In this document: positions 257 through 32,295 of the stretch, piece by piece | How the letters are laid out: each line of letters opens with the position of its first letter | How positions within the stretch are numbered: position 1 is the first letter of the stretch | Sequence record: PV357171.2 | Source: a phage | Direction: 5' to 3' (one strand) | DNA length: 64,000 nucleotides | Notes under the pieces: generated by a model | What the model was told of the DNA's origin: nothing | Database searches by the model: none | What the model saw: only the letters and a program-made list of their open reading frames with translations | Translations under genes and position numbers: made by a program

Positions 257-312
257 CTGATACAGCACTGAGCAAGTTCTTTAAAATTTGACTTGCTCAG
301 TACCTTAAAACT

Positions 313-4645: not shown

Positions 4646-4670
4646 AATTAACTTAAATAGGAAATAAAAT

Positions 4671-4871
4671 ATGGCTGATTTCTGCAAGCAATGCTCCCTT
4701 GATATGTGGGGCAGAGATACTGGTGACTTATCTGGTCTGATTACAGAAGCCGAAGTCAAAGAAGGTTATAGTGCAGTTGTGATTTGTGAAGGCTGCGGTG
4801 TTATCCGTGTAGACCACACCGGTAAGCGTTTGGAAGAACCAGTTCCAATTGCGCAAGTTCCTGTAGAATAA
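4671..4871 (+). CDS. hypothetical small protein with CxxC...CxxC pairs
   Basis: 66 aa; AGGAAA upstream of ATG; CKQC and CEGC pairs suggest a zinc ribbon. Confidence 0.5.
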   Translation: MADFCKQCSLDMWGRDTGDLSGLITEAEVKEGYSAVVICEGCGVIRVDHTGKRLEEPVPIAQVPVE

Positions 4872-4879
4872 AAAATTAT

Positions 4880-4955
4880 TGGAGTGTAGCTCAACTGGCA
4901 GAGCGACGGTTTCTGACACCGTAGGTTTCTAGTTCGATCCTAGACATTCCAGCCA
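4880..4955 (+). tRNA. tRNA-Gln (anticodon CTG)
   Basis: Acceptor TGGAGTG/CATTCCA (one G-U), anticodon stem ACGGT/ACCGT, loop TTCTGAC, T-arm TCTAG-TTCGATC-CTAGA, 3' GCCA. Confidence 0.65.
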
Positions 4956-4961
4956 AACAAT

Positions 4962-5039
4962 TGGGGATTAGCTTAGCTTGGCCTAAAGCTTCGGCCTTTG
5001 AAGTCGAGATCATTGGTTCAAATCCAATATCCCCTGCCA
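4962..5039 (+). tRNA. tRNA-Gln (anticodon TTG)
   Basis: Anticodon stem TCGGC/GTCGA, loop CTTTGAA, T-arm ATTGG-TTCAAAT-CCAAT, 3' GCCA; 1:72 unpaired. Confidence 0.6.
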
Positions 5040-22964: not shown

Positions 22965-23849
22965 ATGTATAACTTTAAAGATAAACTAAGACAAAATGCT
23001 GGTAAAACAAAACCTAAAGAGAACAATAATGTTCCTAATGCCAAAGTATTACCATTTCCAGAACTATCCCAAGAAGAAAAAGATAAGTTAGCATTTATGT
23101 TTGATGCACTTATAGGGCTAAATGGACGTTTATATTCCTCTCTCAATATTAATGAGAAACGTTTAGTAGAGATGTTTTGTAAACGTTACCAAGTTACTTC
23201 AAAGGGCAATTCTTATAAAGAAGGTGAGAAAGCATTTACAGTCTTAAAGATTAGCGCATATGCACATCGTTTCTTAGTTTATGGGTTGCAAATGGAATAC
23301 TTTACTATCCCATCATTTAGCTCTTTCCATATCTTTGAAGATGAACGAATGAATATTGATGATCTCTACGGGGATACATACAAATACTCAGGAAGTCCAT
23401 TCCACGATGCATTAAGGAGTTACCCATCTAACTATTTACCCATTAGAGCATCTCAAGGTAAAGCTAGCATCTTTGCTGTATACTCAGGATCTAAAGCATC
23501 GGATCTAGAAACTTATATATTTAAAGAGCGTAAATCTGTGCTTCCAGATGAAGCATTGTATAACAATCCATTGCTTCCAGAAAAAGAACCAGAAAAAATT
23601 GATGTAACCCCACCAATACCGTCTGACTCTCAGTATTTAATTTATGAGAAACAAGTTAAGTTATCCCTAGAAATTGGATTAGTTACACCGCTTGCTGCAG
23701 CATTCATAAATAGATATCTAGAAATTCCTGATGAGTTCCACACACGTTATAATACGAATATTCAGATAACGGATGAACTAATTGCGTTAGCAAAAGATAC
23801 ACCTACAGATACTGAGGCGTATCAAAAAGCATACCAAGAGTTACTATAA
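22965..23849 (+). CDS. hypothetical protein
   Basis: 294 aa; GGGAGA before ATG; last + strand gene before the repeat-rich block. Confidence 0.55.
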   Translation: MYNFKDKLRQNAGKTKPKENNNVPNAKVLPFPELSQEEKDKLAFMFDALIGLNGRLYSSLNINEKRLVEMFCKRYQVTSKGNSYKEGEKAFTVLKISAYAHRFLVYGLQMEYFTIPSFSSFHIFEDERMNIDDLYGDTYKYSGSPFHDALRSYPSNYLPIRASQGKASIFAVYSGSKASDLETYIFKERKSVLPDEALYNNPLLPEKEPEKIDVTPPIPSDSQYLIYEKQVKLSLEIGLVTPLAAAFINRYLEIPDEFHTRYNTNIQITDELIALAKDTPTDTEAYQKAYQELL

Positions 23850-25059: not shown

Positions 25060-25255
25060 CCTGAATGCGAATAAAAATAAGAATCATTCTCATTTAAAAA
25101 GTGGAATGCGAATGAGAATCATTATCATTTAGAAAACGGAATGAGAACTATTCAAGAAGTGAAATGATTCTCATTTAAAAAGTGGAGTGATTATCGATTA
25201 GCTAGTGAAATGCGAATGATAATGATTCGCATTTAAAAACGGAAGTGAGAAACAC
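25060..25255 (+). repeat. four degenerate tandem units sharing (C/T)CATTTA(A/G)AAA(GT/C)GGA(A/G)TG and GAATGCGAATGA cores
   Basis: Units read at about 25089, 25124, 25168 and 25228. Confidence 0.5.
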
Positions 25256-25266
25256 TGCTATTTAAG

Positions 25267-25275
25267 TTATCCACA
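25267..25275 (+). promoter_or_regulatory. DnaA-box consensus 9-mer TTATCCACA
   Basis: Perfect match to the high-affinity DnaA box consensus. Confidence 0.5.
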
Positions 25276-25327
25276 GACTTATTAACAGCACGATTTGACT
25301 TGACAGAATCCTAGCCATTTTGAGGCG

Positions 25328-25336
25328 TTATCCACA
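25328..25336 (+). promoter_or_regulatory. DnaA-box consensus 9-mer TTATCCACA (inside left inverted repeat)
   Basis: Perfect 9-mer. Confidence 0.5.
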
Positions 25337-25491
25337 GACTTATCCCCAGGTTATTCTACTGTATAAATATACAGTATTCCTATGCAGTGAATAATTCTAA
25401 TATAGGCTTAAAACGTCCTGAGTGGTGGTACTAAAACAAAGGGGTATTTATCTGAAGGACTGAAAAACTGGGATCTGCTCCCCGCTTGTTA

Positions 25492-25812: not shown

Positions 25813-26013
25813 CTATTCACGGTAGACACGCCAGCCGTCTAGCTTCCATTCTTCCCCCTTGCGAATATTGAAAAACCAATCATTAAAATTGTAACCATCT
25901 TCTGACATGATCACGCCGTTTTCTTTCATGTACAAAAATTCATTGCTAGTAAAATATTGATTACTAACTTTAAAACCTTGTTTCATTTTTTCTAGTGCTT
26001 CATCTTTAGTCAT
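25813..26013 (-). CDS. hypothetical small protein (resembles a small phage-associated family with conserved Trp residues)
   Basis: 66 aa; EALEKMKQGFKV...DGW pattern; family assignment is by recollection only. Confidence 0.4.
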   Translation of the reverse strand: MTKDEALEKMKQGFKVSNQYFTSNEFLYMKENGVIMSEDGYNFNDWFFNIRKGEEWKLDGWRVYRE

Positions 26014-26354
26014 TGCGCCACCTTTCGAAACGCTGTTTCAATACTATCCGCAGTGGATTGAATATACGCGCCTTTCATTATCAGGCGCTCGGTACATACC
26101 TTGCGGAAAATATTAATAAAATCATCTTCGTTTTCTGCAATTAATGCTTCACCCATAACCTGAACGTCACAAGATGCAAAGGTCAAAAATTGAAACGCTA
26201 GTTCACGGGCAACGACCGCATTAATTTTATAGTGCGCCTTGCCCTCATAAATATTAATAACGCCCTTATATTCAGGGGAAAGCTGATTTAAATAGTTTGC
26301 TAATAATGCCGGACGGCAATTAGCAACAAAACGATTGCCCTCATAAATTACCAT
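26010..26354 (-). CDS. hypothetical protein
   Basis: Start set at an internal ATG next to the upstream stop (track extends to 26393). Confidence 0.4.
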   Translation of the reverse strand: MVIYEGNRFVANCRPALLANYLNQLSPEYKGVINIYEGKAHYKINAVVARELAFQFLTFASCDVQVMGEALIAENEDDFINIFRKVCTERLIMKGAYIQSTADSIETAFRKVAQ

Positions 26355-26355
26355 T

Positions 26356-26568
26356 TTATAACACTCCACGAAAGGCCGCGTAAAAGGTGGCAAAATGTTT
26401 AACCGTCTCAGCGATCACGTTGCCCCGTTTATCGAATTTCTTTTCTGTAACACGAAAGGCGTTTTTGTTGCGTGCTACATATTCGATTTTACAATCTGGA
26501 CGCTCGAACGTGTTAACGTCCACCAGCTTAAAGCCTTTCGAACGTGTAAGGGAAACGTTACGGATCAT
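26356..26568 (-). CDS. hypothetical basic protein
   Basis: 70-aa ORF in a back-to-back array. Confidence 0.4.
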   Translation of the reverse strand: MIRNVSLTRSKGFKLVDVNTFERPDCKIEYVARNKNAFRVTEKKFDKRGNVIAETVKHFATFYAAFRGVL

Positions 26569-26570
26569 TT

Positions 26571-26759
26571 TTATTCTCCTTTACTAGTCATGCAGCCCAG
26601 CAGATAAGAAAAAACGGCGATACCCGCGCCAATAATAACCATTGGTTTTGTATTTACTAAACCACAATAGGAATCCTGAATACCATAAGCGGTGGCGAAA
26701 AGAGTCAGAATAGCGCCCAAGATACCTGCTAGAATAGCTCGAAAAATAACCATTTTCAT
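26571..26759 (-). CDS. hypothetical membrane protein (two transmembrane helices)
   Basis: Internal start MKMVIFRAILAG... chosen (track extends to 26840). Confidence 0.4.
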   Translation of the reverse strand: MKMVIFRAILAGILGAILTLFATAYGIQDSYCGLVNTKPMVIIGAGIAVFSYLLGCMTSKGE

Positions 26760-26800
26760 TCTCCTAGAAATTAGAGGCGAAAGTAACGCCCAGTTATTGG

Positions 26801-27028
26801 TTACATTAAAACGATTTTGGCGGCTTGTTTTTTGGTGCAATGTTCCGCTTTCAATTCATCCAGCAAAAATCCAGCTGTTTGCTGATCAATCTTGTCATTA
26901 TTGTAAAGCTCCTGAATGGTAACATAAGTTTTAGCAATCCCAAATTCAGAAACCATAACGCTTACAATAGCGGGAACGGATACCCATTCCATACCATTAA
27001 AAATTGCAGAAGATGATGAATGTACCAT
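26801..27028 (-). CDS. hypothetical protein
   Basis: 75-aa ORF, first gene of the - strand array. Confidence 0.35.
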   Translation of the reverse strand: MVHSSSSAIFNGMEWVSVPAIVSVMVSEFGIAKTYVTIQELYNNDKIDQQTAGFLLDELKAEHCTKKQAAKIVLM

Positions 27029-27357
27029 TTTAACGCCTCCTAGAAATCAGGGAAAATTTTCAATCCACCGTTTTGGTGTAAAGGCATTATAACAAAAAAG
27101 GCCACCATAAAAGGCGACCTTTACAAAACTTTACATTAGGTTAATTATTACTCGCTTTCGGTGCTAACGGTAAAAGTAGAAATATCAATACCTTTCACCA
27201 TTTCCAGCATTGCCGCCACCTGGCCGCCGCGTTGGGTCTTTACTTTAATATTACCCCACAGCGTTTAGCTCGTTAGAAAGCGATTTAGGCCGCTTATTTT
27301 GGGCATCATTATAGTATGCTTCCCATTTACCCTGTATATTTATACAGTGGAATAACC

Positions 27358-27366
27358 TGTGGATAA
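27358..27366 (-). promoter_or_regulatory. DnaA-box consensus 9-mer (TGTGGATAA on + strand; inside right inverted repeat)
   Basis: Perfect reverse-complement 9-mer. Confidence 0.5.
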
Positions 27367-27430
27367 GTCTGTGTAAAAGTGCTGTAAAGCCTTCCTATTG
27401 TGTCAATCAAATTTACAAAATGTATAAACC

Positions 27431-27439
27431 TGTGGATAA
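27431..27439 (-). promoter_or_regulatory. DnaA-box consensus 9-mer (TGTGGATAA on + strand)
   Basis: Perfect reverse-complement 9-mer. Confidence 0.5.
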
Positions 27440-27581
27440 CTTAAATGATAGTGGTTCTCACTAACTAATTTATACAGTTATTATATAACAAAATATAGTT
27501 AGTTGGCTAATAGGATTTTAAAGTGATTATGAGTCTGCTAAGTAAACCTGAAAAACTCATTAGGTAGTCTGCTAATGATTT

Positions 27582-27590
27582 TGATATAAT
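27582..27590 (+). promoter_or_regulatory. extended -10 promoter element (TGATATAAT)
   Basis: TGnTATAAT followed by AAACTAATA...AAGGAAACA leader before the HNH gene. Confidence 0.4.
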
Positions 27591-27630
27591 ATAATAGAGA
27601 TTAAACTAATAACATAAGGAAACAATAACA

Positions 27631-28149
27631 ATGGGTCTATTTAAAGATATAGATTATTCGCTTGCTAATGATAACTTTTATTATGATGAAACATCCCCAT
27701 CATTTCTAAGATGGAAAGTACAGAAAGGTAATAGTAAGGTGGGGGATATTGCAGGGCATTATAGTAACACAGGTTACTATCGAGTAAAGTTAGCAGGCGA
27801 ACAATACGCAGTGCATAGAATAATATGGGTATTATTTAATGGTGAGATTGATAGCAATCTAACAATCGATCATAATGATCGTAACCGTGCTAATAATAAC
27901 ATTAATAATCTTCGCTTAGTAGATCATAAGCAGAATACGAATAACAAGAAAGATTATAAGCGTGCTAATAAGTTGCCTAAGCATATCTATTATAATGGTT
28001 CTAGAGTTGATAATAACGGAAGAAACTATTTGCGCGCTATAGTTAAAGATCCTACTAGTAACAAAAGTGTTAGTAAATCAGGTTATGATTTACAAGAGTT
28101 ATTATTATGGGTAGAAACTAAAAAAGCTGAATTTGGGATTGTCAATTAA
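27631..28149 (+). CDS. HNH homing endonuclease
   Basis: 172 aa; YYDETSPSFLRWKV N-terminal motif and DHNDRNRANNNINNLRLV HNH-like core. Confidence 0.7.
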   Translation: MGLFKDIDYSLANDNFYYDETSPSFLRWKVQKGNSKVGDIAGHYSNTGYYRVKLAGEQYAVHRIIWVLFNGEIDSNLTIDHNDRNRANNNINNLRLVDHKQNTNNKKDYKRANKLPKHIYYNGSRVDNNGRNYLRAIVKDPTSNKSVSKSGYDLQELLLWVETKKAEFGIVN

Positions 28150-28494
28150 TTTATTTTATAAATTAACGCAATGCCACTTGATTTTAAAAAGTCAATACCT
28201 TTTCCAACTATTTTTCAATTTTGCTTTTGTTAAATATTTGTTAAATCGAAAATGGGCCGCCTAAAACGCCCTAGAAAGCGGTAAAATTTTCAGGTATGCC
28301 ATTGCATTGCCTACCCTCGTTTATCGCTACCACGAGCTTTCTAGATTTTGTCAATATCCCCAAAGCAAATATAAATGAAAAAATTACTTGCCTATCTGCT
28401 TGGTTTTATGGTATTCACGCGCCCGTTCCTTTTAATTTAGGTGAGCGCCGCACGCCGTCCGGTGAAACTGTATTAGCCATATTGCTAATAATTT

Positions 28495-28503
28495 TGGTAT
28501 AAT
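28495..28503 (+). promoter_or_regulatory. extended -10 promoter element (TGGTATAAT)
   Basis: Near-duplicate of the 27582 promoter-leader. Confidence 0.4.
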
Positions 28504-28537
28504 ATAATAACCAAATGAAACTAATAGGAGAATATTA

Positions 28538-28879
28538 ATGATTGAGCTAACAAAAGATATTGATTTAGAAACTGTGCTAGATAATCTTTACTATGATGAA
28601 ACTAGTCCCAGTTGCCTACGGTGGAAAGTATCCCGCCCCGGTTGCGCCCTTCATGGGGTAGCAGGTACTAAAAGAAAGGATGGTTACTGGTCTGTACAGC
28701 TCAATAAAGAGCGTTACCTAGCGCATCGTATCGTGTGGTTATTATTTAATTATAAAATAGATAGCAAACTAGTAATTGATCATATTGATCGTAACCCTAG
28801 TAATAATTTTATTGATAACTTACGGTTAGTAACTCAAGCCGAAAACAACCAAAATAAGGGAGGCTATAGAAAGGCGTAA
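28538..28879 (+). CDS. HNH homing endonuclease paralog, C-terminally shorter (possibly degenerate)
   Basis: 113 aa; same N-terminal and HNH motifs as 27631..28149 but ends about 60 aa earlier. Confidence 0.5.
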   Translation: MIELTKDIDLETVLDNLYYDETSPSCLRWKVSRPGCALHGVAGTKRKDGYWSVQLNKERYLAHRIVWLLFNYKIDSKLVIDHIDRNPSNNFIDNLRLVTQAENNQNKGGYRKA

Positions 28880-28966
28880 AACTTACGTTTCTTTACAAAA
28901 ATAAGGTTGCGCCCTTTTCGGGAATCTCCTATTATTTATCACGTAGGGCGGCAATGACGAACTACA

Positions 28967-28995
28967 CGGCGGGAAGTTTACCGCCGCGCTCTTTA
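28967..28995 (+). terminator. candidate terminator hairpin
   Basis: CGGCGGG-aagttta-CCGCCG followed by a moderately T/A-rich tract. Confidence 0.35.
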
Positions 28996-29308
28996 AAAAT
29001 TGGGTACATCTTAAAGCCTATCGGCGGTAAACTTATTCATTATAAGGAATCGACGATATGAAACAAACTTTATTGATCACTGGCAAGCCTAGCAAGGCAC
29101 TAGATAGCAAAACAAAAAATTTGTTGACAGTAGCGCAAAATTCTGTAAAATGGCGATTCAAGCAATATTTGCAAGGTCGCCAGCAAGGTTTAGAAATGAT
29201 CTGGCGAAACATTATGATTGACCTGAAGGAAAATCATAAAAAATCTCAAAAAATTGTTTGACAGCCTAGCCGATAGGTTTTAAGATGTACCCAGTTCGAA
29301 AAGAGCGA
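28987..29308. other. small ORF flanked by about 39-bp imperfect inverted repeats (28987-29025 and 29270-29308)
   Basis: Left CGCTCTTTAAAAATTGGGTACATCTTAAAGCCTATCGGC versus reverse complement of right CGCTCTTTTCGAACTGGGTACATCTTAAAACCTATCGGC. Confidence 0.5.
29058..29261 (+). CDS. hypothetical basic protein
   Basis: 67-aa ORF between the inverted repeats; internal TTGACA-N16-TAAAAT promoter-like site. Confidence 0.4.
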   Translation: MKQTLLITGKPSKALDSKTKNLLTVAQNSVKWRFKQYLQGRQQGLEMIWRNIMIDLKENHKKSQKIV

Positions 29309-29490
29309 TAACTTGATAAAATTTGACGGTCGGCACTTACCATAATGTGCCCCGCCCCCTAACGGGATATAGCGGCCTACGTGGAGTTCTTTAAATTGAT
29401 TATATTGGCGAGCGGATTGTTACTTATTACCTGCTGTTACTTTCTAGCAGGTAATGCGGAACAATCCCCAAATAACTAGGAGTTTATATT

Positions 29491-29742
29491 ATGAAAAACG
29501 TTATTACCGCGCCTAAAATTGGTCAATCCGTTTTCATCCCTTTCGTTACTAAAACGGATGAATTAACCGGAAAAGCCGAGCGCATCAAAGGCGCAGCGCT
29601 TATGCCATTTGATACAATCGACGCGGTATACGCTGAAACGGAACGAAGTAACAACGGAAAAACTATTTACAGCGTTCGGGTTAAATCCGGCGACGTTGTA
29701 AAGGTTGTTCAACGCAACGAAAAATGGGAAGCTGTATTGTAA
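29491..29742 (+). CDS. hypothetical protein
   Basis: 83 aa; TAGGAG Shine-Dalgarno. Confidence 0.5.
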   Translation: MKNVITAPKIGQSVFIPFVTKTDELTGKAERIKGAALMPFDTIDAVYAETERSNNGKTIYSVRVKSGDVVKVVQRNEKWEAVL

Positions 29743-29840
29743 TTTAGTGTTAACTTTATATCCCCCAGTAGTTCGGGGGATATAACGATTAACATTATGT
29801 TAATCTAATCCCTTAAATTAAACTAATAGGAGTTTTTACC

Positions 29841-30248
29841 ATGACTAACGCAAAAACCGCAAAATTCGCATGGAATGAAGAAAACACTCAGAAAGCTGTT
29901 ACCATGTACCAGCAGTTAATCAACGAAAACGGTTTAGATTTTGCAAATAGCGACGGCCTGAAAGAGATTGCAAAAGCAGTAGGCGCGGCTTCTCCTGTGT
30001 CTGTTCGCTCAAAATTGACCAGTGCAAAAGCCTATCAAAAAAGCGATAAGCCGCGTAAAGTTGGCGGCGGTAGTTCAATCCGTAAAGCGCATTATGTGCG
30101 AGTAATTGCAAAACACGCTATCGATTCCGGCATTATCAAAGACGCCGATGATCTGGCAAGCCTTGAAAGTGCTAAACTGGAAACGCTGGACGCAGTAGCG
30201 CAACTGTTAGGCGTTGCCGATGAAGTAAAACAGGCCGCAGGTGAATAA
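29841..30248 (+). CDS. hypothetical pre-early-type protein (possibly A2-like)
   Basis: 135 aa; TAGGAG Shine-Dalgarno; sits upstream of the A1-like gene; A2 identity is a guess from size and position. Confidence 0.45.
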   Translation: MTNAKTAKFAWNEENTQKAVTMYQQLINENGLDFANSDGLKEIAKAVGAASPVSVRSKLTSAKAYQKSDKPRKVGGGSSIRKAHYVRVIAKHAIDSGIIKDADDLASLESAKLETLDAVAQLLGVADEVKQAAGE

Positions 30249-30303
30249 TTATATACCTTGCCCCCTTTAGTGAGGGGGCAATAATATAACTGTTTAGCGA
30301 TAG

Positions 30304-30534
30304 TTGTTATCTTCCCTTAAATCAGGAGTTTTAAAAATGATTTTCTTTCCTACTGAGTCATTAATTTTAGGCTTGTTTATTATGGCGGCCTCGTTATTGT
30401 TCGCTTATTTTCAAAATGATTTAGATTCATATTATTTTAAACGTAAATCTAAATTAGCAAAACGTTTAGGTCTGCTTTGTTTTATCGCTGCCGTTGCTTG
30501 TGGTGTTAGTTCTAGCCTAGTGCCTTTAAATTAA
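30304..30534 (+). CDS. hypothetical membrane protein
   Basis: 76 aa with two hydrophobic helices. Confidence 0.45.
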   Translation: MLSSLKSGVLKMIFFPTESLILGLFIMAASLLFAYFQNDLDSYYFKRKSKLAKRLGLLCFIAAVACGVSSSLVPLN

Positions 30535-30624
30535 TGTTGCAAATTATAACGCCTATTGTTCGAGGCGTTATATTTGGCAATATTGCCGTTATTAACCTAA
30601 TCCCTTTAATGGAGCTTTATTACT

Positions 30625-32295
30625 ATGATTATTTCCGCAGAAAAACAAACCGTTATCCTGAAAATGGCCGCTGACTTTAATTTCTATGGTAAACGTCTGC
30701 GCGCTACTAAACTGGAGGTCTGCGACGATATATCAAAAGCAGTCTACGATACAACGAAACATTCCACCGCCATTTGTGATTGGCTGGAAGCAAACAAACC
30801 AGCGAAACCAAAAGCGGCAAAAGTAGCAAAAGCCATTAAAAACGATGAGCGCCCCGAAGCGGCGGGGATTGTTTCTAGCACGGTTGAACAGTGGGAAGTA
30901 AAACAGGGTAAACGCTTTATTATTACGTCGATTCAGAATAATACTTTCCCGCATAAAAACTTTTTAGCCTCGCTTGAACAATTTGCTAAATATATCGGCG
31001 CTGATTTGCTTGTTTCTAAGTATATTTATAATAAAAACGGTTTTCAAAATGGCGAGGGCGCGGATGGAATAAAGTATGATTCCGCGTTCGATAAATATAT
31101 TTGCAGCAAAAACGTGTTTTTACATAACCGCCGTTTTGCTTTCATGGCTGAAATTAATGTTTTGCCAACCGCAGATTATCCGCTTTCTGGATTCGCAGAA
31201 ACTGCTACCGCGCTCAATATTGAAGGGCTGGCAATTGGTCACGCTAAAATTACCGCCGAAAGCGTGCCAGCTTTAAAAGGTGAAGTAGTGCGCCGTATGT
31301 ATTCAACCGGAACGGCAACGCTCAAAAACTACATTCAGCAGAAAGCAGGACAAAAGGCCGAGGCGCTGCATAACTTCGGTGCGCTTATTGTTGAGTTCGA
31401 TGATGATGGGGAATTTTTTGTTCGCCAGCTTGAAACAATGGACGAAAGCGGGGTGTTTTATGATCTGAATGTTTGCGCTACTCCTGCCGGATGCTATGAA
31501 ACATCGGGGCATGTTTTAGGCTTGCAGTATGGCGATATTCACGCCGAAAAATTAGATGAGGAGTGCGCCGCCGCATCTTGGGGGCATGGTGATACCTATG
31601 GGCTAGTAGATATTCTTAAACCAAAATATCAGTTTGTGCATGACGTGCATGATTTTACATCGCGCAATCATCATAACCGCGCATCCGGTGTATTCCTAGC
31701 GAAACAGTATGCCGCCGGACGTGATAAAGTTCTGGATGATCTTATCGATACCGGTCGCGTGCTGGAATCAATGGAACGTGATTTTAGTCAAACAATCATT
31801 GTTGAATCGAATCACGATTTGGCGCTATCCCGTTGGCTTGATGATCGTAATGCTAACATTAAGGACGATCCCGCCAACGCCGAACTATATCACCGCCTGA
31901 ATGCTGCGATTTACGGAGCTATTGCAGAAAAAGACGACACCTTCAACGTGCTAGATTATGCGCTGCGCAAGGTTGCAGGTTGTGAATTTAACGCCATTTT
32001 CCTAACGACTGACCAATCTTTCAAGATTGCAGGTATTGAATGCGGCGTACACGGTCACAATGGCATTAACGGGAGCCGTGGCAATCCGAAACAATTTAAG
32101 AAATTGGGCAAATTAAACACCGGACACACTCATACCGCCAGCATTTACGGCGGCGTTTATACCGCTGGCGTGGCTGGTAGTCTGGATATGGGTTACAACG
32201 TTGGCGCGTCAAGCTGGACACAAACGCATTTAATTACCTATGCAAACGGTCAACGCACTTTGATTGACTTTAAAAACGGTAAATTCTTTGCGTAA
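30625..32295 (+). CDS. A1: A1-like pre-early protein, calcineurin-like metallophosphoesterase fold
   Basis: 556 aa; GDIH, NHD, GHNG and GHTH metallophosphoesterase motifs in order; length matches T5 A1 as recalled. Confidence 0.65.
   Translation: MIISAEKQTVILKMAADFNFYGKRLRATKLEVCDDISKAVYDTTKHSTAICDWLEANKPAKPKAAKVAKAIKNDERPEAAGIVSSTVEQWEVKQGKRFIITSIQNNTFPHKNFLASLEQFAKYIGADLLVSKYIYNKNGFQNGEGADGIKYDSAFDKYICSKNVFLHNRRFAFMAEINVLPTADYPLSGFAETATALNIEGLAIGHAKITAESVPALKGEVVRRMYSTGTATLKNYIQQKAGQKAEALHNFGALIVEFDDDGEFFVRQLETMDESGVFYDLNVCATPAGCYETSGHVLGLQYGDIHAEKLDEECAAASWGHGDTYGLVDILKPKYQFVHDVHDFTSRNHHNRASGVFLAKQYAAGRDKVLDDLIDTGRVLESMERDFSQTIIVESNHDLALSRWLDDRNANIKDDPANAELYHRLNAAIYGAIAEKDDTFNVLDYALRKVAGCEFNAIFLTTDQSFKIAGIECGVHGHNGINGSRGNPKQFKKLGKLNTGHTHTASIYGGVYTAGVAGSLDMGYNVGASSWTQTHLITYANGQRTLIDFKNGKFFA

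Follow-up and report, generated by a model that had tools for sequence, protein, structure and literature searches.

A 64,000-nt stretch of phage DNA (sequence record PV357171.2; the whole of this stretch is hereafter the window) contains an inverted repeat that brackets a small pre-early gene, hdi, with a boxA-like element in its left arm and the core of a promoter in its right arm. The window belongs to a T5-like phage: 452 phage records match it, mainly Salmonella and Escherichia Tequintavirus, and the repeat lies in that portion of the terminal repeat which is transferred in the first step and carries the pre-early genes, here reversed relative to the T5 map. Genes here run in the order two HNH genes, a 67-aa open reading frame (ORF; hdi), T5.007, A2, and A1. 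The features on which the argument depends are as follows.

28885–28935, plus strand: predicted upstream pre-early promoter, from reading of the sequence, with an A/T-rich block (CTTTACGTTTCTTTACAAAAATAAGG)
28967–28986, plus strand: GC hairpin CGGCGG-GAAGTTTA-CCGCCG, directly 5′ of boxA, present in minimum free energy (MFE) and centroid folds
28987–29025, plus strand: left arm, equivalent to inverted repeat A′ of T5 and proposed 5′ strand of the helix
28988–28998, plus strand: boxA-like element GCTCTTTAAAA in the outer part of the left arm, an exact match to GYTCTTTAANA
29044–29049, plus strand: hdi ribosome-binding site (RBS) AAGGAA, from reading of the sequence, with an RBS annotated at the same place in phage Shivani
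29058–29261, plus strand: hdi (T5.008), the 67-aa host division inhibitor and cargo between the arms, from the ORF list and T5 annotation
29124–29151, plus strand: homologue of P-H22 (TTGACA-16-TAAAAT) inside hdi, 11/12 in the promoter scan and annotated in T5
29258–29286, plus strand: homologue of P-D/E20 (TTGACA-17-TAAGAT), 10/12 in the promoter scan and annotated in T5, with an inferred start at ~29293
29269–29307, plus strand: right arm, equivalent to inverted repeat A of T5, at ~−24 to +15 of P-D/E20 and proposed 3′ strand of the helix

The cargo gene is real and already has a function in T5. Because identity across hdi codon positions (0.863/0.893/0.735) is lowest at position 3, and because Hdi homologues in the distant relatives GZ8, My1, and L073 have a QQGL(E/P)MIW(R/D)N motif in common, we consider hdi a genuine gene. 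Its product is 82% identical to that of the contig regarded as T5, where it occupies the same genomic position, and is basic, as the first-pass annotation of this DNA had noted from the sequence (14 K/R vs. 4 D/E by direct count). T5.008 is the name of the ORF in three T5 records. The protein, now called Hdi, inhibits host cell division by targeting FtsZ; its expression alone is toxic, and it is dispensable for plaque formation (PMC10714956; bioRxiv 10.64898/2026.04.02.716235).

Promoters lie upstream of, within, and at the end of this gene. P-H22 and P-D/E20 are stated to be experimentally characterized in T5 (bioRxiv 10.64898/2026.04.02.716235). A promoter-like site previously assigned to the right arm proves to be the homologue of P-D/E20, although its −35 hexamer lies just outside the arm, which comprises the spacer, the −10, and ~+1 to +15. 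The TGA stop of hdi (29259–29261) falls inside that −35 hexamer (TTGACA, 29258–29263). We also observed a direct repeat, 29113–29130 and 29247–29264 (CAAAAAATTTGTTGACAG and CAAAAAATTGTTTGACAG, 134 bp apart), that consists of the A-tract and −35 of P-H22 and P-D/E20. Transcripts containing both arms would originate at the predicted upstream promoter (−35 TTGCGC at 28907–28912, 17-nt spacer, −10 TATTAT at 28930–28935), whose sequence block is kept in T5, Erwinia KEY, Klebsiella GZ8, Gostya9, and Proteus Stubb. Farther upstream are the two HNH homing-endonuclease genes (27631–28149 and 28538–28879, plus strand). Most relatives match only from 28883 onward, and we therefore read the second HNH gene as an insertion directly upstream of the conserved promoter block.

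The repeat is a rediscovery of an annotated T5 feature, and the gene and the promoter are also known. The T5 record AY587007 lists “inverted repeat A” (4682–4706) and “A′” (4950–4974) flanking T5.008; repeat A lies within T5P1 (4663–4737, AY587007) and overlaps P-D/E20 (4664–4738, AY692264). The window repeat occupies the T5 position, between T5.007 and the HNH gene/IRB within the terminal repeat, and its arms differ by 1–3 bases each from those of the T5 contig L025. With T5.008 between the arms, one arm on P-D/E20, and near-identical sequence, the two are the same feature, although the published T5 arms are 25 nt, in a region called untranslated and with no function assigned, whereas the window arms are 39 nt. 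IRA, IRA′, and IRB have been placed in “Repeat Region 1” of the T5 left terminal repeat (Davison, bioRxiv 10.1101/866236). Repeats within the first-step-transfer DNA have been catalogued since the T5 genome was sequenced, and reviews treat them as conserved but unexplained. In the searchable literature we found no mention of boxA, promoter-core pairing, or cross-genus covariation of A/A′, nor of cargo variation between the arms, and nothing that joins T5 to boxA or T5 to RNase III (older subscription papers lie outside its reach). What appears to be new is the boxA element and a family-wide, pairwise co-evolving complementarity between the leader RNA after boxA and the core of the next promoter.

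The repeat exceeds chance expectation and is predicted to fold. An inverted-repeat search of the window recovered arms at 28987–29025 and 29269–29307 (39 nt, 87% complementary, 243-nt spacing) with the ORF at 29058–29261 between them, in agreement with the first-pass annotation except that the right arm, earlier given as 29270–29308, was one base off. When 2 mismatches are allowed, the two arms are the sole sites of the 15-nt core TGGGTACATCTTAAA in the 64-kb window (0.23 expected). The 44 nt after boxA form a best RNA duplex of −49.6 kcal/mol with the next 1 kb, compared with −23.0 ± 2.3 kcal/mol for 100 shuffled left arms scanned against the same 1 kb (z = −11.4 for the real left arm). It had been suggested that a transcript through both arms could form a stem enclosing the whole gene; in the predicted fold of plus-strand RNA from 28942–29330 (−130.7 kcal/mol, z = −10.5), MFE and centroid structures alike contain this long-range stem. 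The window helix has 38 pairs, with an inner stem of 31, and helices in other lineages have 24–34 pairs. Rfam covariance models gave no match at E ≤ 1 in 26000–32000. Before the right arm is transcribed, the leader could possibly adopt an alternative local fold:

28974–29034, plus strand: alternative local hairpin with a perfect 13-bp stem, 28974–28986 with 29022–29034

The loop of this hairpin holds boxA and most of the left arm, and its 3′ half is mismatched in some relatives.

The left arm contains a boxA that recurs after pre-early promoters in five genera. The element at 28988–28998 agrees exactly with the gamma-proteobacterial boxA consensus GYTCTTTAANA (PMC5725501) and is invariant, with an identity of 1.000 in 28 unique relatives vs. 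0.83–0.95 for neighboring segments. It is co-oriented with all pre-early genes at this locus, ~50 nt after the conserved TTGCGC-17-TATTAT of the predicted promoter. The GC hairpin before it has a mean pairwise identity of 0.934, and an equivalent hairpin precedes boxA in KEY, GZ8, and My1. Among the pre-early promoters examined in KEY, GZ8, My1, and Stubb, the sequence GCTCTTTAA[A/C]AA lies 15–25 nt after the −10, and one copy stands ahead of A2 in Vibrio phage 70E37.6. Within 5.4 kb, Proteus phage Stubb (L079) has five perfect 12-mer copies; each comes a short distance after a −10 hexamer and is co-oriented with the genes that it heads (947 on the minus strand, 1364, 1539, 2241, and 2329; one heads a leftward operon). 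All 5,426 E. coli genomes carry the host rrn boxA, TGCTCTTTAACAATTT, in seven copies each with 100% identity; the single copy that was inspected sits ~140 nt upstream of 16S. The boxA copies of KEY, Stubb, and Vibrio 70E37.6 have a 15-nt run, GCTCTTTAACAATTT, in common with this host element. In most lineages a fresh boxA, perfect in lineages other than that of the window, follows straight after the right arm. The leader of P-D/E20 in the window carries two further elements:

29386–29396, plus strand: second, imperfect boxA-like element GTTCTTTAAAT (10/11), with an identity of 0.967 over 29384–29396
29414–29467, plus strand: local 22-bp hairpin from the inverted-repeat search, between the imperfect boxA and the T5.007 RBS

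Equivalent hairpins of other sequence stand at the same place in L073, KEY, and GZ8 (by sequence) and in Gostya9 (by repeat search), and this arrangement looks like a cargo-less version of the order boxA, helix, RBS. No boxA was present in the leftward pre-early operon of the window (27030–27140, minus strand). More boxA-like strings occur outside the rightward pre-early operon, namely GTTCTTTAAAA, exact, at 276–286 (plus strand) and GCTCTTTAAAT, with one mismatch, at 23519–23529 (minus strand).

An annotated ORF overlies this leader. T5.009 (35 aa, AY543070; window 28954–29061, plus strand) falls wholly on the stretch with the leader hairpin, boxA, and the left arm; L070 and L072 have lost its ATG (GGCAATGACG to GGCAAGACGG), and it is probably leader RNA and not a gene. 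A recent T5 minimal-genome study keeps “009”.

Both arms are conserved while the cargo between them is exchanged. Twenty-five unique close relatives have both arms, almost without variation. Mean pairwise identity is 0.949 for the left arm without boxA and 0.918 for the right arm, compared with 0.831 for the hdi ORF and 0.848 for the downstream leader. Thus the left arm is more conserved than coding sequence although it is not a promoter. Most relatives carry hdi alone as cargo. In L032 and L024 an extra 52-aa ORF (MQTIYNDHPATHDTIEKIEQW...) lies between the conserved RBS and hdi; in L032 (1346–1504) its stop overlaps the hdi start (ATGA), and the arms are kept, ~155 bp further apart. DT57C and Gostya9 have an unrelated 58-aa ORF instead, and Erwinia KEY, Klebsiella GZ8, Pectobacterium My1, and Proteus Stubb have two ORFs. 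Where cargo has been replaced, the exchange boundaries are the RBS/start codon on one side and the −35 on the other; they do not coincide with the arm ends. Conservation of the arms among relatives, on which the first-pass annotation had made its proposal depend, extended to every examined relative with cargo genes. A promoter role for the left arm was rejected: a promoter scan found none on either strand, and a divergent minus-strand promoter had no −35 at usable spacing and no TGn in the three lineages read. Three of the records with >90% identity to this T5-like DNA or to A2 are labeled as Listeria phages (OR848616 and OR846838) or as Campylobacter phage C13 (MG065692), and these host labels look doubtful.

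Complementarity persists where arm sequence does not. The arms of the Erwinia, Klebsiella, Pectobacterium, and Proteus relatives have no sequence relation to those of the window, yet 25–38 bp of complementarity is kept (KEY, AATCTGGTATCCATTATGCGCCGCT / AGCGGCGCATAATAGATACCAGATT; GZ8, TTGGGATTCTATAAAAAGCGTTATCGGC / GCCGATAACGCTTTATTATAGAATCTCAA; Stubb, GCTTATTATAGGTGACTCA / TGAGTCACCTATAATAAGC), and My1 has two tandem units, My1a and My1b, whose arms are unrelated to each other. The right arm in KEY, GZ8, My1, and Stubb is again the spacer, −10, and start of a TTGACA/TTGCAA-N17 promoter. Arms of 25–39 nt persist across Demerecviridae subfamilies and genera, down to ~42% A2 identity. A metagenome scan with a 3-sequence A2 alignment gave 17 loci, mostly close relatives, among them L097.

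To locate the pairing partner of each leader, we scanned for RNA duplexes from each upstream boxA across the next 1.1 kb. In the window, DT57C, L070, L073, KEY, GZ8, My1 (twice), and Stubb (twice), the best partner coincided with the core of the following promoter. Duplex energies were −39 to −59 kcal/mol except for one Stubb unit, Stubb1 (−26.7), and −20 to −31 kcal/mol for boxA copies with no cargo after them. With boxA excluded, none of 100 shuffles matched the real pairing in 8/9 units, and the −10 hexamer falls within each partner. In 8/8 strong units, the helix has its 5′ strand starting at boxA +0 to +13. Cognate arms pair at a mean of −43 kcal/mol vs. −19 for non-cognate arms, and the long-range helix also appears in the MFE and centroid structures of KEY and Stubb.

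Substitutions in one arm are compensated in the other. At least 2 Watson–Crick pair types occur at 34/47 positions in a table anchored on the −10 hexamer. A covariation test used a MAFFT alignment of 19 rows, of which two are out of register: 88.1% of cells pair vs. 30–47% with the partner slid, both members have changed in seven pairs (a number reached in 1/500 shuffles), and the covariation score is 0.131 vs. 0.098 (0/500 shuffles). For example, TAC/GTA has become AAC/GTT in the L070 clade, and the −10 itself has changed with its partner in DT57C, from TAAGAT/ATCTTA to TAAAAT/ATTTTA. Between KEY and its metagenomic relative L097, GGTATC/GATACC corresponds to GGTGTC/GACACC (A-U to G-C), and the L097 helix pairs at 25/25 positions. 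L024 has a compensated 1-bp insertion, with an extra A in the left arm and an extra T in the right arm. Together, these results show that complementarity itself is under selection across the family, in a fixed relation to boxA and the promoter core.

We suggest that the selected product is a long-range RNA helix that would form in read-through transcripts only, akin to the boxA-linked leader–trailer helices of rrn operons, a reading that we favor while putting its chance of being right at about even. Transcription from the upstream pre-early promoter (~28907–28935) would pass the GC hairpin and then the consensus boxA (28988–28998), which would recruit a host NusB/NusE-based (rrn-type) antitermination complex through the candidate target RNA 5′-CGCUCUUUAAAAAUU. 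The RNA directly 3′ of boxA, overlapping boxA in the T5 clade, is complementary to the spacer, −10, and start RNA of P-D/E20 (29269–29307). Once polymerase had moved past hdi and crossed P-D/E20, the arms would pair into an 8-bp stem, a 3 × 3 internal loop, and a further stem of ~31 bp that closes hdi into the loop. Transcripts from P-H22 or P-D/E20 lack the left arm and so cannot form the helix, which would therefore mark read-through RNA only. As a double-strand-specific (RNase III) site, the helix could separate the toxic cargo mRNA from the essential T5.007-A2-A1 message and set the stability of the cargo mRNA. The 3′ strand may lie on the promoter merely because promoter and boxA fill the intergenic space, with the stop codon within the −35. 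The helix is probably used for insulation or for processing by RNase III. That Nus factors are recruited, that the helix forms in vivo, that RNase III cuts it, and that regulation follows are steps that we infer. A wider and more tentative proposal, which we think somewhat less apt to hold than to fail, is that the Demerecviridae pre-early operon is built like a host rRNA operon, with boxA and Nus at each promoter and a promoter-pairing helix, cut by RNase III, bracketing a swappable and often toxic cargo.

Several observations weigh against this helix model. Stubb1, the ninth unit of the duplex scan, is marginal (z = −2.0). In the plus-strand wobble comparison, G·U and A·C sites stand at 10:7 (P = 0.31), which is not significant; G·U fills 39 cells and A·C 8, the A·C states being singletons and the G·U states occurring in many genomes, but cells are not independent. 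Plus- vs. minus-strand duplex energies are mixed across lineages. The T5-clade helix takes in the first 7–8 nt of boxA and would therefore compete with NusB/NusE binding. By simple count boxA is not enriched in the window (2 found vs. 0.76 expected), so that the case for it rests on position, invariance, and recurrence. The upstream promoter is a prediction that falls below the scan threshold (3/6 in the −35) and is annotated in none of the T5 records. In Vibrio members, A2 is preceded by boxA, yet a promoter-pairing helix is missing, as are cargo genes at that place. A T5 hdi deletion mutant is viable (PMC10714956), and hence laboratory growth does not require the unit to be intact. Our search of the searchable literature found no RNA-end, RNase III, or Nus-binding data for T5-like phages. 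Finally, the arms may have evolved in concert by gene conversion between them.

Of the three options offered by the first-pass annotation, namely a miniature mobile element, a recombination site, and a structure controlling expression of a pre-early gene, the comparative data favor the last. We give almost no credence to hdi being carried by a miniature mobile element with inverted repeats or by a cassette for site-specific recombination or inversion: inverted repeats do surround a small gene, and the cargo does differ between phages, but there is a single arm pair in 64 kb, no target-site duplication is present (CGCCG flanks the repeat on its left side and ATAAC on its right), and the arms consist of functional promoter and boxA sequence and differ between lineages and within one phage. 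Swap boundaries fall at the RBS/start codon and the −35 and not at the arms, no empty site was seen among 461 matching records, and no inverted cargo was seen among the relatives examined. A repeat with no function of its own is a more serious, though still unlikely, explanation. Here an inverted partial copy of the promoter core would have arisen once and then stayed similar because the arms recombine or undergo gene conversion with each other, or, in a variant, would persist since the flanks of a gene-swap hotspot are conserved regulatory DNA. Exchange of the cargo among phages and the viability of the hdi deletion mutant fit such a history, and phage recombination systems act on short homologies, which we count in its favor. 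Against this, arms of 25–39 nt persist across genera while their sequences turn over completely; the left arm never comes with a −35, always abuts boxA, and is more conserved than the adjacent coding sequence; and G·U intermediates are frequent whereas A·C states are rare singletons.

Two further explanations accept that the arms have a function and place it elsewhere. The arms could be a pair of DNA operators bound by a phage or host protein (e.g., A2 or an A1-RNA polymerase complex), looping out hdi and P-H22 and repressing P-D/E20. The right arm does cover the −10 and start of a strong promoter, A1 reportedly dampens pre-early promoters, A2 binds DNA, and the plus/minus strand asymmetry expected of an RNA element is not significant. 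We nevertheless hold this explanation to be quite improbable: arms differ wholly between lineages and within one phage (My1a/My1b and the Stubb units), the left arm always directly follows an RNA-level signal, boxA, on the transcribed strand, and the compensated substitutions and insertion keep Watson–Crick register and not a motif. In particular, a single sequence-specific DNA-binding protein is unlikely because the My1a and My1b arms are unrelated within one phage. Alternatively, the helix could act on polymerase, releasing or resetting the boxA-Nus complex at the next promoter or altering pausing or termination, and would thereby limit interference between tandem strong promoters. That the 3′ arm is always on the promoter core, that a fresh boxA comes straight after it in most lineages, and that the T5-clade helix sequesters boxA itself would all fit, but no U-tract follows the 3′ arm, and its coincidence with the promoter may reflect promoter and boxA filling the intergenic space, with the stop inside the −35; we regard this, too, as unlikely. 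An intrinsic terminator or attenuator was rejected, as the promoter/terminator scan found no terminator-like site between the arms or anywhere in 28200–29900.

Some other inverted repeats in these genomes lie with DnaA boxes. Those found in Vibrio members belong to the DnaA-box region. In the window, large inverted repeats at 25244–25374 and 27332–27462 (75 nt at 77% and 39 nt at 85%) with TTATCCACA DnaA boxes bracket ~2 kb of leftward genes and equal Davison’s IRD′-spacer-IRC′ and IRC-spacer-IRD, which are candidates for the injection stop signal.

The data turn one T5 repeat into a specific RNA model, a boxA-linked, promoter-pairing helix, which predicts dependence on NusB/E, SuhB, and RNase III in the first minutes of T5 infection. 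If the model is true, the conserved “Repeat Region 1” gains a function, the annotation of T5.009 is corrected from gene to leader RNA, and deletions at the locus would be understood to remove RNA elements as well. It would also represent a second, N-independent hijacking of the Nus machinery, by a virulent phage, and would account for the way in which a read-through transcript that carries the essential A2/A1 can also express a toxic FtsZ inhibitor. If it is wrong, what is left is merely the rediscovery of an annotated repeat.

Host rrn operons, with a boxB-boxA-boxC leader and such helices around both 16S and 23S rRNA, offer the closest comparison. There, boxA is followed by the 5′ strand of a leader–trailer helix of >17 bp that carries an RNase III site, and boxA nucleates a Nus complex thought to hold the leader near the RNA exit for pairing with the trailer (PMC10250234). 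Both systems present a promoter (a predicted one in the window), a hairpin (in the place of boxB), boxA, a 5′ strand, cargo, a 3′ strand, and a next boxA; the rrn helix and the predicted phage helix both span more than 17 bp, with flanks that vary yet covary, and KEY, Stubb, and Vibrio 70E37.6 even have a 15-nt run of the host boxA in theirs. The window helix is likewise longer than 17 bp, with arms that flank the cargo. Unlike rrn, the phage cargo is one or two ORFs of ~50–100 aa and not rRNA, the 5′ strand begins 0–13 nt after the boxA start compared with 18–19 nt, and the 3′ strand doubles as a promoter core. We therefore liken the repeat to the leader–trailer helix as a working analogy and do not count it as a member of that family, its cargo not being rRNA. 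Non-rRNA uses of boxA are known upstream of CRISPR arrays and suhB, for Rho protection or gene regulation (PMC7665894, PMC5725501). These are host loci where boxA has no partnered long-range helix, unlike the phage repeat.

Phage systems show parts of the same logic. The boxA of lambda (CGCTCTTA...) modifies polymerase, and lambda sib is an RNase III substrate completed only in antiterminated read-through RNA, where it then controls an upstream gene, int. This nut/sib logic matches what we propose for the phage repeat, although there is no recognizable boxB/N system here and the sib substrate is a local hairpin, in contrast with a gene-spanning helix. RNase III sites of T7 early genes are ~20-bp double-stranded RNAs between early genes transcribed by the host polymerase, and the hairpin at 29414–29467 is similar; unlike the window repeat, the T7 sites are local hairpins with no tie to boxA or promoters. 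In the PeSL cassettes of T4-type phages, direct repeats made up of an early promoter and a local stem-loop lie by small, variable, often toxic genes and are associated with gene shuffling. PeSL cassettes and the window repeat are alike in that a conserved regulatory sequence with an early promoter flanks swappable small genes, whereas the window repeat is inverted, spans the gene, and co-evolves pairwise.

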